64,000 bases of DNA from a virus (taxonomy: Duplodnaviria > Heunggongvirae > Uroviricota > Caudoviricetes): the IMG/VR virus record IMGVR_UViG_3300021255_000128, positions 64,001-128,000 of that record. One strand, written 5' to 3'. Positions 5,965 to 41,700 of the stretch are shown here, one piece after another (the stretch's first letter is position 1; each line of letters opens with the position of its first letter). Both the position numbers and the translations under genes were made by a program. Below the pieces are notes generated by a model, which saw nothing but the letters and a program-made list of their open reading frames with translations, searched no databases and had not been told where the DNA came from.

Positions 5965-6388
5965 ACAAGAATTTATTATACTCATTGATGGAGCAATTCG
6001 ACAAGAAATGCTTCTTGGAATAGCAAGAGATGAACATAGACTTCAAGGTTTAAGAAACATTAAGTCTGATTTCAATTACATCTCTTCTAATAATCCAGGT
6101 TTGGAAACAATAGAAATTCTAAAAAGACTTTATAAAGAAAGAGAAGAGAATACAAACCTGTATGCAAATAGTGATCGTAGAGATTTATGGTTACAAGAAA
6201 ACACCGAGAAGAACATTCTTCAAAAGTGGCTTCCAAAAGAACCCGCTAAAGAGGAGGTAATAAGCTTCCTTAATTCACTTACTGAGATTCCAAAGACAAA
6301 AAGTTCTTTTAAGAAATTTCAGGATGCTTGTTCCGAAAGATTCGGACAAAAGATTGATTCCAAAATTATATTGGAATTTCTTTCATAA
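5957..6388 (+). CDS. YqeY/GatB-like tRNA-binding domain protein, about 143 aa
   Basis: Pattern RLQGLRNIKS..IEILKRLYKEREE..LY..R.DL..E..E..IL.KWLPK..EE matches the YqeY helical family. GTG 5957 start is preferred over 5879 on length grounds. Confidence 0.7.
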   Translation: MNKQEFIILIDGAIRQEMLLGIARDEHRLQGLRNIKSDFNYISSNNPGLETIEILKRLYKEREENTNLYANSDRRDLWLQENTEKNILQKWLPKEPAKEEVISFLNSLTEIPKTKSSFKKFQDACSERFGQKIDSKIILEFLS

Positions 6389-6400
6389 AATTGAAAATTT

Positions 6401-6456
6401 ACGGGTTCTTTTACCATTAGATGTCCATATAGATATCTTCTGGTAGGGGAACCCGT
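6401..6456 (+). other. Long intergenic RNA hairpin (16 bp + 2x2 internal loop + 7 bp)
   Basis: acgggttcttttacca pairs with tggtaggggaacccgt and agatgtc with gatatct. The G-U pairs indicate the + strand RNA is the folded one. No U-tract follows. Confidence 0.7.
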
Positions 6457-6497
6457 TTAGTATATTTAACCTATAAAAATTTGGTTTATTTTCAATT

Positions 6498-7913
6498 ATG
6501 AAACTTATTATTTCAAAAAACGCAAATATTAATTATTTAGCGAAAGTAGTGGAATTAAAAGACTTCCATGATCATCCAGATCCAGAAGTTACTAAATTAA
6601 AATGCACATATGTTGACGGATATAATATCATTGTTGGTATTGACTCTCAGCCCGGTAAATATGTATATTTCCCGACCAGCTCTTGTATCAATCCACAATT
6701 TCTTAGCTTTGCTAACCTCTATCGTCATGGACAACTCAATGCCAATCCAGAACAGACTGGAATGTTTGAAGATAATGGCAGGGTTAAAGCAATTAAACTA
6801 AGAGGTTGTATTTCTGAAGGTTTTCTTTTGCCTTTACAAACGTTATTAAATTGGATTATTGATTCTGTAAACATTAATATCGAAGAATCAGATATTGAAA
6901 ATAATACTGAATTTGATACAGTTGAACATAACGGTAAATCCTTTTGGATTTGTAAGAAATACATTGTTCCAATCCAAACTACTTCTATAAAACAAACTCA
7001 CTATGATCGTAGACAAAAAGGCCTTAGACGATTTAATCGTATTATAGACACACAGTTCCGCTTTCATTACGACACAATTTTAATTAAGAAAATTCCTAAT
7101 GCAATTAAACCTGAGGATTTAATACATATGTCGTATAAAATACATGGAACGAGTGGAATCTCTGCTTATGTATTAACTAAGAAACCTTTGAGTAAGTTTA
7201 ATAGAATATTGAATTGGATTGGAGGTAAAGGATTTAACGAGTGGGAATCAGTTTATGATTATATCTATTCCTCTCGAACTGTAATAAAGAATGCAAATTA
7301 TAATCCAGCTGTTAAGGATGGATATTACGGTTGTGATGTATGGTCAGAAGCAGATAAATATGTAAGACCTTATCTAATCAAAGGAATGACACTTTATTAT
7401 GAGATTGTTGGATTCTTACCCTCCGGTGGATATATACAAAAGAACTACGATTATGGATGTGTTCCTCCAACAAAACCCGATGAATATATTCCAGAAAAAC
7501 ATTTTAAAGTAAGGATTTATCGTATTACACTTACCAATCCTGACGGAATAGTTCATGAATTTTCTCCTAGAGAAGTTCAGATTTGGTGTGAAACTCATAA
7601 TTTAATTCCTGTTGAAGAGTGCTATTATGGATTTGCTGGAAATCTTTATCCAGAGCTTTATCAAGATGTAAATGGACAACCAGTGTATCCAGAAAATTGG
7701 TTCGAACAATTCCTTGAAAAACTTGCTAATGATCCGGAATTCTATATGGAAAAGAATTCACCACATTGTAAGAATAAAGTTCCTCATGAGGGATTAGTAA
7801 TAAAGATAGATAACATGCGTTCAGCTGCCTTTAAACTTAAATGTTTTGCATTTTTAAATAAGGAACAAGCTTTACTTGACGCAGGTGAAGGAAATATTGA
7901 GGATGAAAGTTAA
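6498..7913 (+). CDS. RNA ligase (Rnl2/DRB0094-like) with N-terminal OB-fold-like extension, 471 aa
   Basis: Nucleotidyltransferase motifs YKIHGTS, YYEIVG, EGLVIK and FKLK. The N-terminal DHPD..KL..YVDG..RVKAIKLRG.ISEG segment is typical of DRB0094-type ligases. Confidence 0.85.
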   Translation: MKLIISKNANINYLAKVVELKDFHDHPDPEVTKLKCTYVDGYNIIVGIDSQPGKYVYFPTSSCINPQFLSFANLYRHGQLNANPEQTGMFEDNGRVKAIKLRGCISEGFLLPLQTLLNWIIDSVNINIEESDIENNTEFDTVEHNGKSFWICKKYIVPIQTTSIKQTHYDRRQKGLRRFNRIIDTQFRFHYDTILIKKIPNAIKPEDLIHMSYKIHGTSGISAYVLTKKPLSKFNRILNWIGGKGFNEWESVYDYIYSSRTVIKNANYNPAVKDGYYGCDVWSEADKYVRPYLIKGMTLYYEIVGFLPSGGYIQKNYDYGCVPPTKPDEYIPEKHFKVRIYRITLTNPDGIVHEFSPREVQIWCETHNLIPVEECYYGFAGNLYPELYQDVNGQPVYPENWFEQFLEKLANDPEFYMEKNSPHCKNKVPHEGLVIKIDNMRSAAFKLKCFAFLNKEQALLDAGEGNIEDES

Positions 7914-8542
7914 TGGATATACAACAATTAATAGAAGATAAAAATGTATTGTACATTTATGAGATAGGATTGCAGATACATGGATTATTTACTAATTCTG
8001 ACGATAGGGATTTTCTACTAATTGTATCTGATGATTACATTCCATCAGAAGAACTTAAAAATGATGAACATTTCCAACTTTATTATATTTCAGATTGGTT
8101 TAATAAAGTGTTAGCAAATGAAATGATTGCTTGGGAATGTGCATGTCTTCCAAAGAAATATGTTCTTAAAGAACATGTAAAGTTATTATTGCAAACAAAT
8201 CCTCTACAACTTCGTAAAGAATTTGACTCTATTTATGATTATGTAATAGCTTCGGCAAAAGCACATATACTAAAAGGAAATTCATTAACTGGTCAAAAAC
8301 AGTTGTGAGAATTAGTAAAGTATTTAAAATTTGCAAATCAAATTATAGAAAATCATAAAATTGTAAATTTTAAAGAGGTTGCAGAAGATTATCGTCAAAT
8401 TGTTAATGGACTTACAGATGATTTAGAAACAATAATGGATACATTTAATGAAAAATTATATTATCCGTTACAATTGTTTAAAAAGTATACAGACGGTCCA
8501 TTAAAAGCAAGTAAAATTAAAAAGATTGTACAAAATGACTAA
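7913..8542 (+). CDS. Nucleotidyltransferase-like protein (Pol beta superfamily, degenerate motif), 209 aa
   Basis: EIGLQIHG...SDDRDF resembles hG[GS]x9-13Dh[DE]. One TGA (8306); ends TAA 8540-8542. Confidence 0.55.
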
Positions 8543-8976
8543 TTCTAATGCAAAAGGAGCTCCTGCAATGTTAATATTGCAGGGGCTCCCGTAAACTAGC
8601 TTCTGGAAAATCAACTTTTGCACGTGAGTTTATAAAAGATAAAAAGGATTGAATTATTGTTAATCGTGACTCTATTAGAAGAATGTTTGGAGACTATTGG
8701 ATGGTATCAAGAGAAACTCTTGTAAAAGATAGTGAATATGCAATAATTCTTATTGCATTAACTTCTAAATGGAATGTTATCATTGATGATACAAATCTTA
8801 ATCCAAAATATATTTCTGACTTAACAAACATTGCAAAGAAAACTGGAGCAAAAATAGAATTTAAAAAATTTATTGTACCATTAGATGAATTACTAAAAAG
8901 AGATGCTAACAGGGAAAATCCTGTTGGTGAAGACGTAATTCGTAAATTTTGGGAAAAATATAATGAACGAATATAA
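8535..8976 (+). pseudogene. Polynucleotide kinase / AAA_33 P-loop kinase interrupted by a 7-nt insertion (pseudogene or recoded gene)
   Basis: MLILQGLP then TAA (8592-8594); ASGKSTFARE..W(TGA)IIVNRDSIRRM..VIIDDTNL..RDANR resumes at 8599 in the +1 frame. Start is ATG 8535 or 8568. Confidence 0.75.
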
Positions 8977-9109
8977 TTTCAGAGTATTTATTGAAAATCG
9001 AGTTGAAATAAATACTACATTTCACGCTAAAAATGAAAAAGAAGCTTGAATAATGGTAAGACGTCAATATCCATCTGCAAAAGGATTTAAATACGAATTA
9101 TTAAAATAA
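8963..9109 (+). CDS. Small hypothetical protein, 48 aa (one TGA)
   Basis: ATG 8963 to TAA 9107-9109 fills the intergenic gap. Confidence 0.5.
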
Positions 9110-9110
9110 T

Positions 9111-9395
9111 ATGTTATTTCAAAAGAGAAAAATTAAAGAACATTTAAGCAAAGGTCTTAAAGAAATCGATTTATCAAATTATCCATTTGGTAAAGTGAGA
9201 GAGGTACTTGAAGAATTAGGATATCGATTTAGTGATAGTAAATATGAATTCGTTGAGTTGGATGATTGGGTCAATGGTTGGCAACTTGATTATTGGGCTT
9301 ATATTTTTAAAGACGAAGAATATACTGGTTACTTAATTGAAGGTTCATTCTGGTACGGAACATGTAAAATTGTTTATTATGGCTTATGTGACTAA
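9111..9395 (+). CDS. Hypothetical protein
   Basis: 94-aa ORF, Trp-rich (all TGG). Confidence 0.65.
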   Translation: MLFQKRKIKEHLSKGLKEIDLSNYPFGKVREVLEELGYRFSDSKYEFVELDDWVNGWQLDYWAYIFKDEEYTGYLIEGSFWYGTCKIVYYGLCD

Positions 9396-11143
9396 AGTAA
9401 CTAGAGCTGAATTTGCAACAACTTGAAAAAGAGCATTAAACGCAGCAAGAAGAACTGTTGGTAAAAAGCCTCTCGATAAAGAGCCATCTAAAAGTTGGGA
9501 GGCTAAAATGCTTCTTGCTGAACATTCTCCTATTAGATTAGTTGAATATGATGTAACTTTTGAAGATATTAAACAATGGGTAACTACGCATCAATTAGGT
9601 GCCCTTATATAGAAATATATATTGAATAACCGTGTGAACAATAAGATTACAATTATTGGGTCATAATTGTATGGCTAACGGTGAAAGTCCTTAACTGAAG
9701 GATAACACCGTGATTATTAAATTAAATATGATAGGGATATATAAAATTACAAATAAAATTAATGGTAAAATTTACATAGGACAAAGTAAAAATATAACAC
9801 ATCGCTGAAAAGAACATAAATGAAGATCTAAAAATTGTCTTTATCCAATTCAAAAAGCAATCACTAAATACGGAATCGAAAATTTTGAATTTGAAGTAAT
9901 AGAAGAATGCTTAATTGAAGAGTTAGATGATAGGGAAATTTATTATATTACTTTATACGACTCTACAAATAAAGCAATAGGATATAATATTTCAAAAGGA
10001 GGAGATAGAGGTCCAACAATGTTTGGGGAAAATAATCCAAATTGTGTTATTTCTGACGCAATTGTTTCTGAAATAAGATCGCTTTATTTTAACGGATATA
10101 ATAAAAAAGAGGCTTATGCAGAAATACTTAAACTTCAGCAAATAAATAGTAATACATTTGCAGATATCTGAATTGGTAAAACACATAAACAAGTTGATTA
10201 TTATGTTTATGATGATGAATATAAATCAGAAATATTAGAACTTCATAGATTAAATAAAAGTAAAAATACAATTACTGCTGCAAAACAATATGTTCAAGAT
10301 ATAAGGAATAGTAAAGCAAGTGGTATTCCTATTTCTTCGTGTTATAAACAATATAAAGATAAAATTAGTAAATTTACATTTGATGATATTTGATATTATA
10401 GAGTATATCCATATATTATTCCTACTGTAGAAGATAAGTATGTACCTTTTAAAAAAGCTCCTAAACAGAATCCAGCTGTAGATCAATATGATTTAAGCGG
10501 AAATTTTATAAAAACGTTTAACTGTTTAGAGGACGCTATTGTTGAATTAAAAGGTAAATTTGATAAAAATGTTTCTACTAGAATTAGAAATGTCTGTAAA
10601 GGTATTACTAAATCTGCATGCGGATATATTTGAAAATTTAATAATTGTAACGACTAGAAGTGATGAGTGTAACTTCGTACACCAGAGACGTACTGGTGGA
10701 AGCGCACGGCCTCCAAAAATATGGAGGGTGAGATAGTCTATTCCTAATAGTAATATTAGGTAGTAAAGTTAGTTCGACATTGGCTTGGATTTATTCCATT
10801 TGTACATTCTCAACGTGAAGATCGTAGGAAACTTGAAGTTCCTAGAGATGAACTTCCTCAAGGATCATTAAATGATATGGATTTCTCTGTAAACGCTCAG
10901 GCAATGATAAATATTTCAAGAAAACGACTTTGTAATAAAGCTTCTCCAGAAACAAGAGATGCTTGGCAAAAAGTGGTTAATGCTATTGGAGAAATTGATC
11001 CTATAATGGCAGAAAAATGCGTTCCAAATTGTGTTTATCGAGGTTTCTGTCCAGAAATGGAAACTTGCGGATTTGTTAATTCTCCAAAATTTAAAGAAGC
11101 TCTTGAAAAATATAGAAATACAAATTATGATGAATCCAAGTAA
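9379..11143 (+). CDS. thyX: Flavin-dependent thymidylate synthase-like protein, spliced: exon 1 9379-9591, exon 2 10769-11143 (195 aa)
   Basis: LAEHSPI motif in exon 1. Splicing restores WVTTH|LVRHW...HSQR, followed by NAQAMINISRKRLC..ASPETR..CVYRGFCPE. Confidence 0.85.
9592..10768 (+). mobile_element. Group I intron in thyX (1177 nt) carrying a homing endonuclease
   Basis: 5' exon ends in U; P1 GCAU pairs with GUGC (U.G at the splice site). P4/P5 CTAACGGTGAAA..GATAACACCGTG, P7 GTAACGACTA, S-like TGAGATAGTCT, terminal G at 10768. Exons rejoin in frame. Confidence 0.92.
9728..10657 (+). CDS. Intron-encoded GIY-YIG homing endonuclease, 309 aa (five TGA)
   Basis: MIGIYKITNKINGKIYIGQS..HRW; C-terminal NUMOD1-like VDQYDLSGNFIKTF..CKG..ACGYIW. 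The stop TAG overlaps the P7 GACTA. Confidence 0.92.
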
Positions 11144-11510
11144 AACATGTTGTTATGGTGGATGAATTGCCCCTAATGGTGATTATTATGGATTAAATGA
11201 GGATGATATTGACTATATTCATATTGCATTATCAAATCGTTTAATGCAAGATGGATTAGTTCCTCCTCAATCAAATCCAGATAGATGGCTTGAAAAGAAT
11301 GGATGAATAAAACAACATGGTAATCATATTTGTACACTAGATAGAAAAGACTATGATTATTGTATAACTCAAAAACAATTAGAAACATTAAGAGATATAA
11401 TTGGCCAAGATTATATGTGGCTTGAGTTTGTTAATCAAGAGAAGACGGTCTTTATAAACGAATTATTTGACTTAAACTCATGAGAACTTCATTATCTTCT
11501 TGTAAATTAA
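11127..11510 (+). CDS. Hypothetical protein, 127 aa (three TGA)
   Basis: Open only with TGA=W; contains GW(TGA)IAPNGDYY. Could alternatively end at TGA 11481-11483, which overlaps the next ATG. Confidence 0.65.
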
Positions 11511-12187
11511 TCGCTATTGCTGGACTTAAAAATTCAGGAAAGGATACTGTTTCAGGAATGTTGGAGTACCTTTTAAACGCACCCAAACCATTTAAAACAT
11601 TTTTCTTCTATAATATTTTTAGAAAATGACCTGGTAAATGAAATACAACTGCATTTGCAAAACCATTAAAAGATAGTTTATCTGTAATATTAAATGTGTC
11701 AATTGATAGATTTGATGACAGGTATTTTAAAGAGAATGTATTTGTTGATTTAGATTCAATGTTAATAATTGATAAAAGTTTATTAGATGATGATGATATT
11801 TTATCAGAAAATAAATTTTCTAAATTAATTAAAACAGAAACACCTATTACAGGATATCTTTCTATTAGACAATTAATGCAATATTACGGTACATCTGTTA
11901 TTCGCAAATTTCTTGGAGATAAAACCTGAATCAATTCTACTTTAAATCAATGTGTGAGTAAAAATACAATAGTTTCTGATTTACGATTTAAAGTTGAATA
12001 TGATGAAGTAAAATTAAGAGATGGAATTATTATTTATATAGAACGTCCTGGATGTACACCTGGTTCACATTCATCTGAAAGAGAAGTTTTAGAAATGAAA
12101 GAACAAGGGTTGTTTGATTATACAATTCAAAATAACGGTTCTTTAAAAGATTTGTTTAATAAAATAAAAGACATTATAAATGCATAA
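11480..12187 (+). CDS. Deoxynucleoside monophosphate kinase, 235 aa
   Basis: Walker A IAGLKNSGKDT, AFAKPLK, RQLMQYYGT, KTW(TGA)IN, VSDLRF..E. Three TGA join the ORF-track pieces. Confidence 0.88.
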
Positions 12188-38782: not shown

Positions 38783-41700
38783 TTATTGGTTTTGTTTGTA
38801 ATAACAGTTTAATAATCGCATCATTCAGCTGTTTAACTGCCTGTGCCGAGTCTTTTGAATTTTGTAATAATAATTCCGGATATGGATCTTTTGAATAAGT
38901 TACAGCAGAGCGTTTACCTTCGGAAGAAATTTTAGTTCCAGATTTAGCAATTCTAATATTTCTATCTATCCTATTTCTAAACGATGGTGACAAATTCCAA
39001 TAAAGATTATCATAGCCTAATTCTTGTTTCTTTAATGCTAATCTAGTATTAAGAGAAGCTAATTCTTGAGCCAATGCATCACCTTCTAACTTTCTCCTTT
39101 CTATAGCCAACCTTTCATTACGATACCATTTGTCCAAATCACCAAGCTTCTGTGTATAGGCCCGACTTCCTTCAAGTCCTTGCATTGTTTGATAATTACG
39201 ATTGTATCAATCTTGAGTAGCATAAGCAGCTTGATCGAAGAACTTAGATTTTTCAGCAATATTAGCATTCTTTGCTTGAACATCTTCGATACCATGCTGC
39301 CAACGAAGCTGACCATTCTGATTAGCTATTTCAGTATTACGAAGAATGTTGTTATTATTAAACTCATCCAATCCAGCTTTATATTGACCGTATTCCTGAG
39401 AATCTGCTAAAGCACCTTGTAATTCAAGTTGTCTTGCTTCTTGCTGACGTGAACGCTGCATTAAATCATTTTGCATTGCATCAGACGTAACAGGCTTTGA
39501 CATTCTTGCATTATCAGCTTGGACTCTATATGCATTACCAGTACCAGTATTAATGTATCTTGGAGCATTTAACAGCGGTCCTTGCATTTGATACTTCGGA
39601 CGATTTAAGAAGTTATCTAACTGCTTATCGCTCTGTCTCATCGCATATAACGAACGAGCTCAGTTAAGAGGAACATTTAAATCAGGGTTATATTTTTCAA
39701 CAGAGAATGTACCTTGACTATCATTGTTTGTCAAAGTGGTATGATTTGTATTTCTATTAGAAACAAGGTCAAGATTTATAACATCTTGTTGATTATCGAG
39801 ATATTTTTGCAATTCGTCTCCTTCTTGCGCTCTAACAATTTTACCACCTTTCTTAAATAAAGGCTGCATTACTGCACCAGATGGCTGTTGATCTTGGTTT
39901 CTCTGATAATTTGCCGCAGTAAACGGATTAATTCATTGAGGAAGTGCAATGCCTTGTCTCTGTGTACTAACTTGTCTGACAACTGCTGGAAGATTTGGTT
40001 CAAGTAACATTAATTCTGAACGATTCCCAGAAGGTAGTACGATTTCTTGCCTTAACGCAGGTTCGCCTTGTAATTGTGCTCTATACGCTTTCTGTTTATC
40101 TCCAACACCATATCACCAATCATGCCAGTTATTACCATTAGCCTGTTCAGTAGTTTCTGTCTTAACCGCTTTCTTTTTAGCATTAACTACAATATCGCCA
40201 TCTTTACCACGTACACGTTGTCAAATAGTTTTCTTTTCTCTTAGTAAAGATTCAGCTGCTGCGGCAATATCTTTATCTGCTGCATTAGGTGCCTTTGCTT
40301 TTATGGCTTCACGTAATGCTTTTGGTTGATCCGAAGCAGATAAAACTTTTTTGATTGCAGTATCATCAAGAGTAACATCTGTATCTCCAATCTTAAAGTT
40401 TTCTGAATAGGCTTTTGTTTTTGTAGTTTTTGTACCTTTGCCAAATCCACCAGACTTACCGATTCCAACACCAGCAGTAATAGCATTTACAAGCATATCG
40501 ACATCACGAGCTGTAAATTTCTGTCCAGATGCGATCTTATTTGCAGTTTCAACAACTCCTGCACCAAGTCCATAAACAGATGCTGCTTTAACAATTGTAG
40601 GTAACGCTTTTTTGACAGCATTTGGAATTCTGGCAATCTTTCCTGCACCTCCAAGAATAGGTAATAACATTGTGGCATCCATTCCAAGATTTAACAAATA
40701 ATTAGGAATAGCACCTTTTGTGCCTCTACTTAAATCAGCATATAATCTTGCAGTAGAACCCGTTGCACCAGTAGCAACAGATGCAAGATTTGCGCCAGGA
40801 ATAAATGCAGTAGTAAGAGAACCTAAATCTGCAGCAAGAGCTACCATATCAGCTGTATCAGCATCCGTTCAATTCTTACCTCCTATTTCAGAAACTCCAG
40901 CAGCATTTTTTGGATTAGTGCTTGTAGTATTTACTCTTTTTTCAGTAACCGCTGTTGCAGTTTTAGCACCACCAGCAATACCGCCTTTTTGATCTTTTAA
41001 TATACCGCCGTTCTTTTCAAATTGTGGTGCTGTAACAAGCATATTATCTCTACGTTGAGCACGAGATCCCCTTCTATTATTTCTAATAGCTTCTACAAGT
41101 TGTTTAACTTCTTGCTCTGAGAATCCCATTTTTCTAAACTGATTAGATAAACTACTAAAATTCCAAAATTCGTTATCCCCTTGTCTAAACCCAGATTGTA
41201 CCAATGTAGATAAAGCTGTCATAAAGTTCTTTTTATTTTGAGCATTACCTACAACATTATTTAATCAGTTTGGATTATTTGCAAGGATTTGAGCAACCTC
41301 CTTTGGAAGTACAATATCTTGATTCTCAGTTCCGTTTGCATAAATTTGTGGCATATGAAGAATTACATCTTGATCTGGATTATCTATACTTCTATAGAAT
41401 CTAAATCCAGTAGCTTGTCCATTTTTATCAAGAATGTCTTCATAATAACGATTGTTATATGCACTATTATTTCTTCCAACAGTACGTTTATATGTATTTA
41501 ATCCAGTTTCTCTAGCTTGTCCGTTTTCTAATCGAATTACTTCTTCAGGAGTCAGCTCTCTTTCTAAACCACCTCGATTGTTTAAAAGTGCATACTTATA
41601 GTTATATCTACGATAAGGTCCTTCTAATGAATCATCTCCAAGGTTTACATACTGAATTAACTGTTGATCGTCTGTCATTCCATTAGTGGTAGCAAGTCCA

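Follow-up and report, generated by a model that had tools for sequence, protein, structure and literature searches.

How a phage can make a kinase from a gene that carries a stop codon inside the most conserved motif of the enzyme is the question raised by one locus in virus record IMGVR_UViG_3300021255_000128. The window analyzed here is a 64,000-nucleotide (nt) stretch, bases 64001-128000 of this complete 175,847-bp record, which has direct terminal repeats and whose source environment is ruminant gut metagenomes. In the window, the gene for a small Pnk-like polynucleotide kinase is interrupted in its Walker A motif (P-loop) by 7 nt that begin with TAA. A preliminary description of the window compared the site with translational bypassing in T4 gene 60, found no matched landing codon, and considered a micro-intron, a plain inactivating mutation, or an assembly error as alternatives. 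Our analysis points to a programmed short translational bypass ("stop-hop") in the Walker A motif, a reading to which we assign a probability of about three in four on the strength of comparative sequence evidence. Feature coordinates are given in Table 1.

The zero frame runs from ATG 8535 through an internal ATG at 8568 (ATG TTA ATA TTG CAG GGG CTC CCG, with CCG at 8589-91) and closes at TAA (8592-94), directly behind CCG. The Walker A motif G-x-x-x-x-G-K-[S/T] is complete only when 8592-8598 is skipped, and removal of these 7 nt gives the P-loop GLPASGKST, as in every intact relative. The kinase continues in the +1 frame, which opens at 8575 and contains no ATG, GTG, or TTG ahead of the P-loop; its first possible start is Met 8683. 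From 8599 this frame matches Pfam AAA_33 (59.8 bits against a cut-off of 27, E = 4.6e-16, profile positions 9-137); strand beta-1 and G-x-P, which make up the first eight profile positions, come from the other frame. The kinase is approximately 40% identical to annotated phage polynucleotide kinases (tblastn), and it ends after the kinase domain with no C-terminal HAD_PNKP (3'-phosphatase) domain.

Immediately 5' of the stop is a hairpin of 14 bp with one G.U pair and a 6-nt loop (8556-8569/8576-8589). The local fold reaches -31 to -34 kcal/mol, a stability that none of 200 shuffled sequences attained (z = -5.1 to -5.3) and that is exceptional given the A+T-rich DNA (z approximately -5.2). The 5' arm is carried by an N-terminal extension of eight extra codons after the start, and the hairpin buries both ATG 8568 and the Shine-Dalgarno-like AAGGAG at 8554-8559. 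AAGGAG is probably a by-product of complementarity to GGGCTCC, and 5' arms that resemble a Shine-Dalgarno sequence are found in some, not all, related cases. An outer helix (8550-8556/8617-8623) in the window's minimum-energy fold was dropped; it is not kept in strain L012. The preliminary description had the anatomy right: the stop-containing 7-nt insertion (TAAACTA) in the kinase Walker A, the hairpin against its 5' side, the +1 continuation with no start of its own, and the canonical P-loop obtained by removing the 7 nt.

Independent contigs carry the same insert. Three Logan contigs span the site with the 7 nt and 0 gaps: X1 (probable source run; 0 differences), X3 (2017 study; 13 substitutions), and X5 (2025 bovine study; 24 substitutions). 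Run X4 gave no contig across the site, a look-up of runs for 8440-8760 found no RNA run, and run X20 contained only 0.11 of the words of the wider stretch. Metagenome contig L012, from a strain of the window's phage, keeps the 7 nt with 33 substitutions over 2.4 kb and no indel, and its codon before the stop is CCA in place of CCG. The insert is not an assembly error. Downstream of it, 25 sites vary when the strains are pooled; 19 are synonymous in the kinase frame, and 4 and 1 are synonymous in the other two frames. At least 19 synonymous sites would arise by chance under neutrality with a probability of 4e-9 (1.4e-5 counting transitions alone). As judged by this substitution pattern, purifying selection acts on the frame behind the insert. 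That frame is therefore translated in phages all of which carry the insert. The in-frame TGA at 8650 is TGG in other strains. Within the hairpin, C8566T (X3, X5, and L012) changes a C-G pair to U.G and keeps the pairing.

The interruption is not private to this genome. We collected 55 distinct cases, of which 53 came from scans of IMG/VR and metagenomes and two are the window and L012; duplicates were removed. The IMG/VR pattern (G-x-Pro / TAA / 3 or 4 nt / x-[S/T/C]-G-K-[S/T]-T) returned 35 and 8 loci, nearly all of them real genes. A variable-gap scan added inserts of 8 and 9 nt, and for gaps of 0-2 nt or at least 7 nt after TAA it gave nothing beyond chance hits, and a scan with CCY as the proline codon added the CCT cases. 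The hairpin was not part of the scan pattern, but membership of the 55-case set required a folding free energy (dG) of -15 or lower over 62 nt. An exact-pattern search of IMG/VR for near-identical copies found none, and that collection may lack near relatives of the window.

All 55 cases share one anatomy: G-x-Pro, TAA, 0-3 nt, a Y-Y-N triplet position, and x-[S/T/C]-G-K-[S/T], followed by at least 100 open codons. The insert measures 6 nt in 41 cases, 7 nt in eight, 8 nt in five, and 9 nt in one. The codon before the stop is CCG in 32, CCA in 13, and CCT in 10. The last triplet of the insert is CTA (27), CCA (11), CCT (5), CTG (4), CCG (2), TTA (2), TCA (1), CTT (1), ACG (1), or ACA (1); it is Y-Y-N in 53/55 (CCN 18, CUN 32, UUA or UCA 3), with two others. 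By the motif after the insert, the genes encode Pnk-like kinases (20), other AAA_33 kinases (18), and UvrD/Rep-type helicases (17), and Pfam scans confirmed the three groups in representatives. Some Pnk-like members are the bifunctional kinase-phosphatase PNKP (HAD_PNKP is present in L079 and L115; L111, with 289 aa, is of similar length). Behind the insert, the open frame in each case covers the full protein, from 118 to more than 540 aa.

The hairpin keeps a fixed position relative to the stop. Its 3' end lies 1-4 nt before the stop in 55/55 cases, and the mean dG is approximately -26 kcal/mol (last 80 nt, first 45 cases), compared with -6.3 kcal/mol for 39 intact homologs, none of which reaches -18. 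The two arms of a hairpin are matched to each other: a 5' arm paired with its own 3' arm gives -21.2 kcal/mol, and cross-combinations give -9.9. In 36/42 cases the sense strand folds better than the antisense strand, as it should if G.U pairs contribute to the structure, and this points to a role at the RNA (mRNA) level. The position of the hairpin follows the stop rather than the start, which lies from 9 to more than 200 codons upstream, and some 5' arms are in the untranslated leader. In the 8-nt class (L115, L122, L131, L136, and L142), the 5' arm is in the untranslated leader and contains an AGGAGG ribosome-binding site, and the only start codon is inside the hairpin; initiation and hopping may be coupled in this class.

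Two control searches bear on the specificity of the pattern. The 6-nt pattern had 14 hits in 596 Gb of bacterial and archaeal genomes, all by chance and with 0 open frames, and this search gave no cultured host or prophage; the Y-Y-N triplet was present in 1 of the 14. When TAA was replaced by AAA, CAA, or GAA, there was one hit, not in a real gene, versus 29 distinct TAA cases with the same Lys codon.

Intact homologs of the kinase are useful for reading the history of the element. Those with 34-59% identity (L001-L010, L013, L015, and L018-L066) read M-(S/A)-K-I-I-...-G-x-P-x-S-G-K-S-T, without the hairpin and without the 8-codon N-terminal extension, and none of the intact homologs has a longer P-loop. 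Interrupted relatives include L014 (52% aa identity to the window; CCG TAA CCA GCA) and L017 (54% identical; CCG TAA CTG GCA), and the sites among relatives include CCG-UAA-CCA (+6) and CCA-UAA-UAU-CCA (+9). Strong hairpins are present in L012, L014, and L017; their 5' arms differ in sequence, each matching its own 3' arm. A tree of 58 Pnk-like kinase domains places the interrupted genes in approximately four clusters, with a minimum of two required by well-supported branches. Within clusters the insert varies in length (window 7 vs L014 6; L017 and L086 6 vs L102 7), and one cluster has all lengths: L079 (6), L103 (7), the L115 group (8), and L111 (9). L016 (2415-2525) is an intact kinase that is sister to a cluster of interrupted genes; it keeps an N-terminal extension and has no insert and a decayed hairpin (-10.7 kcal/mol). 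These features match what precise loss of the insert predicts, and L016 may represent such a loss.

The insert is apparently not decoded, because its lengths cover all three frame classes among close relatives and sense-codon versions are absent. The variable lengths, the obligatory stop, the preceding proline codon, and the Y-Y-N triplet before the codon at which reading resumes all agree with non-decoding and disagree with readthrough or a single-base shift. The anticodon UGG can pair fully with C-C-N, with C-U-N through a middle G.U, and with U-Y-N through a first-position G.U. The first downstream triplet that UGG can pair with is CUA at +7 in the window, CUG at +6 in L017, and CCA at +6 in L014, each of which gives a canonical P-loop, and in every case checked the landing triplet is the first such triplet. 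At the level of sequence, these comparisons show that the landing triplet is constrained. CCG-UAA-A-CUA is a stop flanked by codons that one peptidyl-tRNA can pair with, a +7 hop; the earlier statement that no matched landing codon is present was too strict, as CUA is near-cognate for UGG and belongs to the Y-Y-N class of 53/55 cases. A 10-nt hop from Leu to Leu (CUC to CUA) was rejected; its P-loop would be one residue short, and the relatives give no support.

Under the proposed mechanism, ribosomes would start at AUG 8535, in coupling with the upstream gene, and would melt the 14-bp hairpin. With the rare proline codon CCG (8589-91) in the P site, UAA (8592-94) would enter the A site. At that point the 5' arm would be outside the ribosome, and the 3' arm would fill the mRNA channel over the approximately 13 nt behind the P site. 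Re-pairing of the arms would pull the mRNA forward, peptidyl-tRNAPro (anticodon UGG) would leave CCG, and after a 7-nt slide of the mRNA it would re-pair with CUA at 8596-98 (C-G, U.G, A-U). Decoding would restart at GCU 8599 to give a 144-aa kinase with the P-loop GLPASGKST and the predicted junction peptide GAPAMLILQGLPASGK. Ribosomes that do not hop would release a 19-aa peptide, and hop efficiency would thus set the kinase dose. From the comparisons above we infer that a hop occurs, that the hairpin pulls, and which tRNA takes part. Escherichia coli tRNAPro(UGG) is shift-prone (PMC4519876), and experiments, some of them on 70S ribosomes, have shown that +1 shifts are stimulated and -1 shifts attenuated by a refolding hairpin that abuts the shift site (PMC3639245, PMC6321510). 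In gene 60, pairing of the exiting mRNA has been proposed as the driver of forward bypassing (bioRxiv 10.1101/2024.12.09.627546).

Several points weigh against the proposed hop. The scans required a proline take-off codon, TAA, and G-K-[S/T], so part of the constancy of these elements follows from the search design; the pattern left the landing triplet and the open frames free. Many of the 55 cases are mutually related, and the counts overstate their independence. CUA is only near-cognate for UGG, with G.U at the middle position, and 2/55 cases (ACG, which is L103, and ACA) have no plausible landing triplet. The 41/55 inserts of 6 nt are in frame and by themselves also compatible with readthrough. 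Drop-off is favored by the length of the nascent chain at take-off, only 19 aa in the window and 9-12 aa in some relatives. The hairpin also hides the Shine-Dalgarno-like sequence and ATG 8568, and it could instead, or in addition, control initiation.

We regard standard triplet recoding as very unlikely. It would comprise a +1 frameshift at CCG-U-AAA in the window and readthrough in the 6-nt relatives, and the P-loop would be GLP-KL-ASGKST. The +1 frame is open right behind the T of TAA, the majority of related inserts are in frame, and the shift-prone behavior of tRNAPro(UGG) would help. However, a +1 shift from CCG lands on CGU, where no re-pairing is possible; no UAA suppressor tRNA is encoded in the genome; and three mechanisms would be needed for inserts of 6/9, 7, and 8 nt, which are found within single clades. 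The P-loop would be two residues too long, which is unseen in intact homologs, and if two extra residues were tolerated, sense-codon versions would be expected, of which the AAA/CAA/GAA scan found none.

Removal of the 7 nt from the mRNA is quite improbable. It could occur through a micro-intron, through hairpin-guided endonuclease cleavage with joining by the neighboring RNA ligase, or through editing; an RNA-ligase-like gene does lie beside the kinase, and the hairpin could be a recognition element. The micro-intron raised in the preliminary description fares poorly, as 7 nt leaves no room for a ribozyme core and no Rfam family matches in 8000-12000 (E <= 0.1), either at the hairpin or at an intron around the GIY-YIG gene downstream. 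Helicase genes carry the element as well, in phages that have no RNA ligase nearby, and the kinase would be required for its own maturation. Removal also leaves unexplained the stop at the start of the insert, the preceding proline codon, and the Y-Y-N end.

To a similarly low degree, the hairpin might act mainly as a translational operator or as protection at the DNA level, with only a truncated or separately initiated C-terminal product being made. The burial of AAGGAG and ATG 8568, the relatives whose sole start codon is inside the hairpin, and the endonuclease-like gene just upstream in approximately 10 of 35 related loci would all suit such a role. However, the hairpin holds a fixed position with respect to the stop and not to the start, which is 9 to more than 200 codons upstream; the sense-strand G.U pairs favor an RNA role over DNA-level protection. 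The kinase frame offers no start codon upstream of Met 8683, and a product without strand beta-1 and G-x-P would have no P-loop.

Very unlikely is an inactive gene, that is, a tolerated frameshift mutation next to an unrelated hairpin. The kinase is accessory, and many crAss-like phages do without one. Against inactivity, 19/25 variable sites behind the insert are synonymous in the kinase frame and indicate purifying selection in insert-bearing strains; the frames behind the insert are full-length (118-540 aa or more) in 55 cases and three protein families; the stop insert and the hairpin co-occur perfectly; and the window and L014 have diverged to 52% aa identity with the element kept in both. 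An assembly or sequencing artefact has a negligible probability, since the identical 7 nt, with zero gaps, is in contigs of three studies and in a separate metagenome contig.

Bypassing in T4 gene 60/mobA (bioRxiv 10.1101/2022.08.31.505936; PMC5009743) is the known system with which the preliminary description compared this site. Shared features are a stop right after the take-off codon, an insert inside a conserved enzyme motif of a phage gene, a peptidyl-tRNA that is retained and re-pairs downstream (as proposed here), and mRNA structure 5' of the site that aids forward movement. A further shared feature is that relatives carry the element together with homing endonucleases, and that in some the endonuclease is gone and the bypass retained. 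Comparative evidence strongly favors a bypass: the stop, the gap, and the 5' hairpin recur in 55 phage P-loop genes with 6-9 nt inserts, and the window's frame behind the insert shows purifying selection. In other respects the two differ. The gap is 50 nt in gene 60 and 6-9 nt in the Walker A cases (7 in the window), and gene 60 has a take-off stem-loop in the gap, whereas here the hairpin is wholly 5' of the stop. The nascent-peptide signal of gene 60 is unlikely here, with 19 codons before the stop and 9-12 in several relatives; no nascent-peptide motif was shared by the cases beyond the constraints of the hairpin and strand beta-1. The take-off tRNA is Gly in gene 60 and would be Pro here, with a landing triplet that is often only near-cognate. 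Gene 60 is one topoisomerase gene, and the Walker A element is in at least three protein families. The window site has no adjoining endonuclease gene.

Short hops over stop codons are known from synthetic E. coli constructs (Weiss, Dunn, Atkins, and Gesteland, 1987, as described in PMC5009743). In the constructs covered by that account, matched or near-matched codons flank the stop, and 9 nt (10 here) yields one amino acid through a short hop (+6 to +9 among the present cases). Those constructs, as described there, were inefficient, whereas the Walker A cases are natural and conserved, have a dedicated 5' hairpin, and include out-of-frame hops. A 2016 review by Atkins and colleagues stated that stop-hops had been shown in synthetic constructs and that no natural occurrence was known (PMC5009743). 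Bypass candidates of 10 nt in the large terminase of Streptomyces phage Hau3 share a short frame-disrupting insert that starts with a slow-to-decode codon, flanks that are adjacent in insert-free homologs, and local RNA structure, and mass-spectrometry support was obtained in E. coli for a UAA version (PMC10732093). The Hau3 system differs in its rare UUA codon as a sensor of host state, in its gene and motif, in having no conserved juxtaposed 5' hairpin of the present type, and in its few cases.

The byps of Magnusiomyces capitatus mitochondria, as summarized in PMC5009743, are also many short skipped inserts with take-off and landing codons that are often imperfectly matched. According to that summary they are mitochondrial, 27-55 nt long, spread over many genes of one genome, and have an unassigned A-site codon; the Walker A element occupies one site per gene and one motif in many phages. 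Refolding upstream hairpins (PMC3639245, PMC6321510) likewise have a 3' edge that abuts the shift site, re-form behind the ribosome, and favor 3' movement, as confirmed on 70S ribosomes; they differ in coming from engineered or viral attenuator contexts and causing single-nucleotide shifts, with no natural hop over a stop. With the T4 Pnk/PseT family (Pfam AAA_33) the window gene shares the AAA_33 kinase domain, its identity to annotated phage kinases, and an RNA-ligase-like neighbor. It differs in being a kinase domain only (144 aa after the proposed hop, no HAD phosphatase) and in being unreadable without recoding.

Full-text literature searches found no published description of Walker A stop-hops. 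On balance, we favor the broader proposal that these elements are natural stop-hops, the first of their kind, and form a widespread family of cassettes for recoding, often linked to homing endonucleases, in the Walker A motif of phage kinases and helicases. A 5' hairpin that refolds during translation would drive a slide of 6-9 nt, and tRNAPro(UGG) would land on C-C-N or on near-cognate C-U-N/U-Y-N. If this is true, a phage could tolerate a DNA insert that breaks a conserved endonuclease target and still make a normal enzyme, at a dose set by hop efficiency. For decades, the study of bypassing has relied on a single well-characterized example, T4 gene 60, together with the yeast mitochondrial byps and a handful of candidates; dozens of short hops that share a simple and variable layout would offer a compact natural system for sliding driven by mRNA refolding and for tolerance of landing mismatches. 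The link between homing endonucleases and recoding would extend beyond T4. Gene callers truncate or miss such genes, including kinases and helicases of gut and rumen phages, and it would be wrong to score such "frameshifted" genes as pseudogenes or assembly errors.

Homing endonucleases may account for the origin of the insert. Among the upstream neighbors of 35 non-redundant interrupted genes, approximately ten are homing-endonuclease-like (NUMOD3 4, TnsA-like 4, LAGLIDADG 2). The two LAGLIDADG genes (L103:7557-8063 and L111:8709-9341, both on the minus strand) end approximately 50 nt before the start of an interrupted PNKP kinase. In the mobA/gene 60 cassette, the insert shields its own DNA from the nuclease, and some lineages lose the nuclease and keep the bypass (bioRxiv 10.1101/2022.08.31.505936). 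By analogy, the present insert may have arisen as protection of conserved Walker A DNA from a homing endonuclease that is still present in some relatives and missing here. In the window, the 209-aa gene and the kinase have no endonuclease gene between them. The nearest homing-endonuclease gene, which is downstream (Table 1), contains 5 in-frame TGA codons.

Table 1. Features at and around the interrupted kinase gene, in window positions.
Feature	Position	Strand	Remarks
RNA-ligase-like gene	6498..7913	+	weak PHA02142 OB-fold match; counterparts in related loci match Pfam RNA_ligase
Conserved gene, 209 aa	7913..8542	+	directly upstream of kinase
Kinase gene overall	8535-8976	+	small Pnk-like kinase
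Probable kinase start codon ATG	8535..8537	+	overlaps stop of upstream gene (ATGACTAA), likewise in intact relatives; L001 and L002 share the ATGnnTAA overlap
AAGGAG, Shine-Dalgarno-like	8554..8559	+	8 nt before internal ATG 8568; partly inside 5' arm
Hairpin 5' arm	8556..8569	+	absent from intact homologs
Hairpin loop, 6 nt	8570..8575	+	
Hairpin 3' arm	8576..8589	+	encodes I-L-Q-G-L and first base of Pro codon; ends 2 nt before stop
Putative take-off codon CCG (Pro)	8589..8591	+	rare in genome (7.5% of Pro codons)
Putative 7-nt coding gap TAAACTA	8592..8598	+	stop TAA 8592-94, spacer A 8595, putative landing triplet CTA 8596-98; kept in 4 strains, absent from intact homologs
Resumed kinase frame, ASGKST..., 125 aa + stop	8599..8976	+	GCT 8599 to stop 8974-76; in-frame TGA = Trp at 8650
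Nearest homing-endonuclease gene, GIY-YIG + NUMOD1	9710..10657	+	0.7 kb beyond kinase stop

The gene context of the kinase suggests an RNA-repair module together with the RNA-ligase-like gene. Divergence between the window and L012 is uneven across 6618-9063: the kinase part has 18 differences in 375 nt (4.8%), and the RNA-ligase-like gene has 5 in approximately 1.3 kb (0.4%). This suggests a recombination mosaic around the kinase. The phage record has approximately 31% G+C and giant open reading frames (ORFs) like those of crAss-like phages. TGA is a sense codon genome-wide (360 in-frame TGA versus 246 TGG in long ORFs), and the long ORFs terminate with TAA (49) or TAG (12). The phage has 19 tRNA genes, one of which has the anticodon UCA, fitting TGA as Trp, and two of which encode tRNAPro(UGG). 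The tRNA loci are outside the window (G000:C1:25724-26008 and 41581-41657). Special "hopper" marks were sought in the two tRNAPro(UGG) genes, and none were found; the second of these genes is A+T-rich, has an acceptor-stem mismatch, and looks degenerate.

A scan of the 175.8-kb phage genome for coding hairpins that end at a stop found no second site of the kinase-gene kind. The strongest hairpin of the genome-wide scan (-33.6 kcal/mol) is at 6398-6457 in the window, between an ORF end at 6388 and the start of the RNA-ligase-like gene at 6498. As read from the sequence, a second P-loop gene that needs recoding is present in the same genome approximately 13.1 kb before the window start; it encodes an SF2 helicase (G000:C1:50880-50915). 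The site reads ACA GGG TTT C GGA AAA ACT, and ACTGF|GKT needs a +1 shift at UUU-C, where tRNAPhe can re-pair on UUC and the A site contains the rare CGG codon; three codons further on is a zero-frame TAG.

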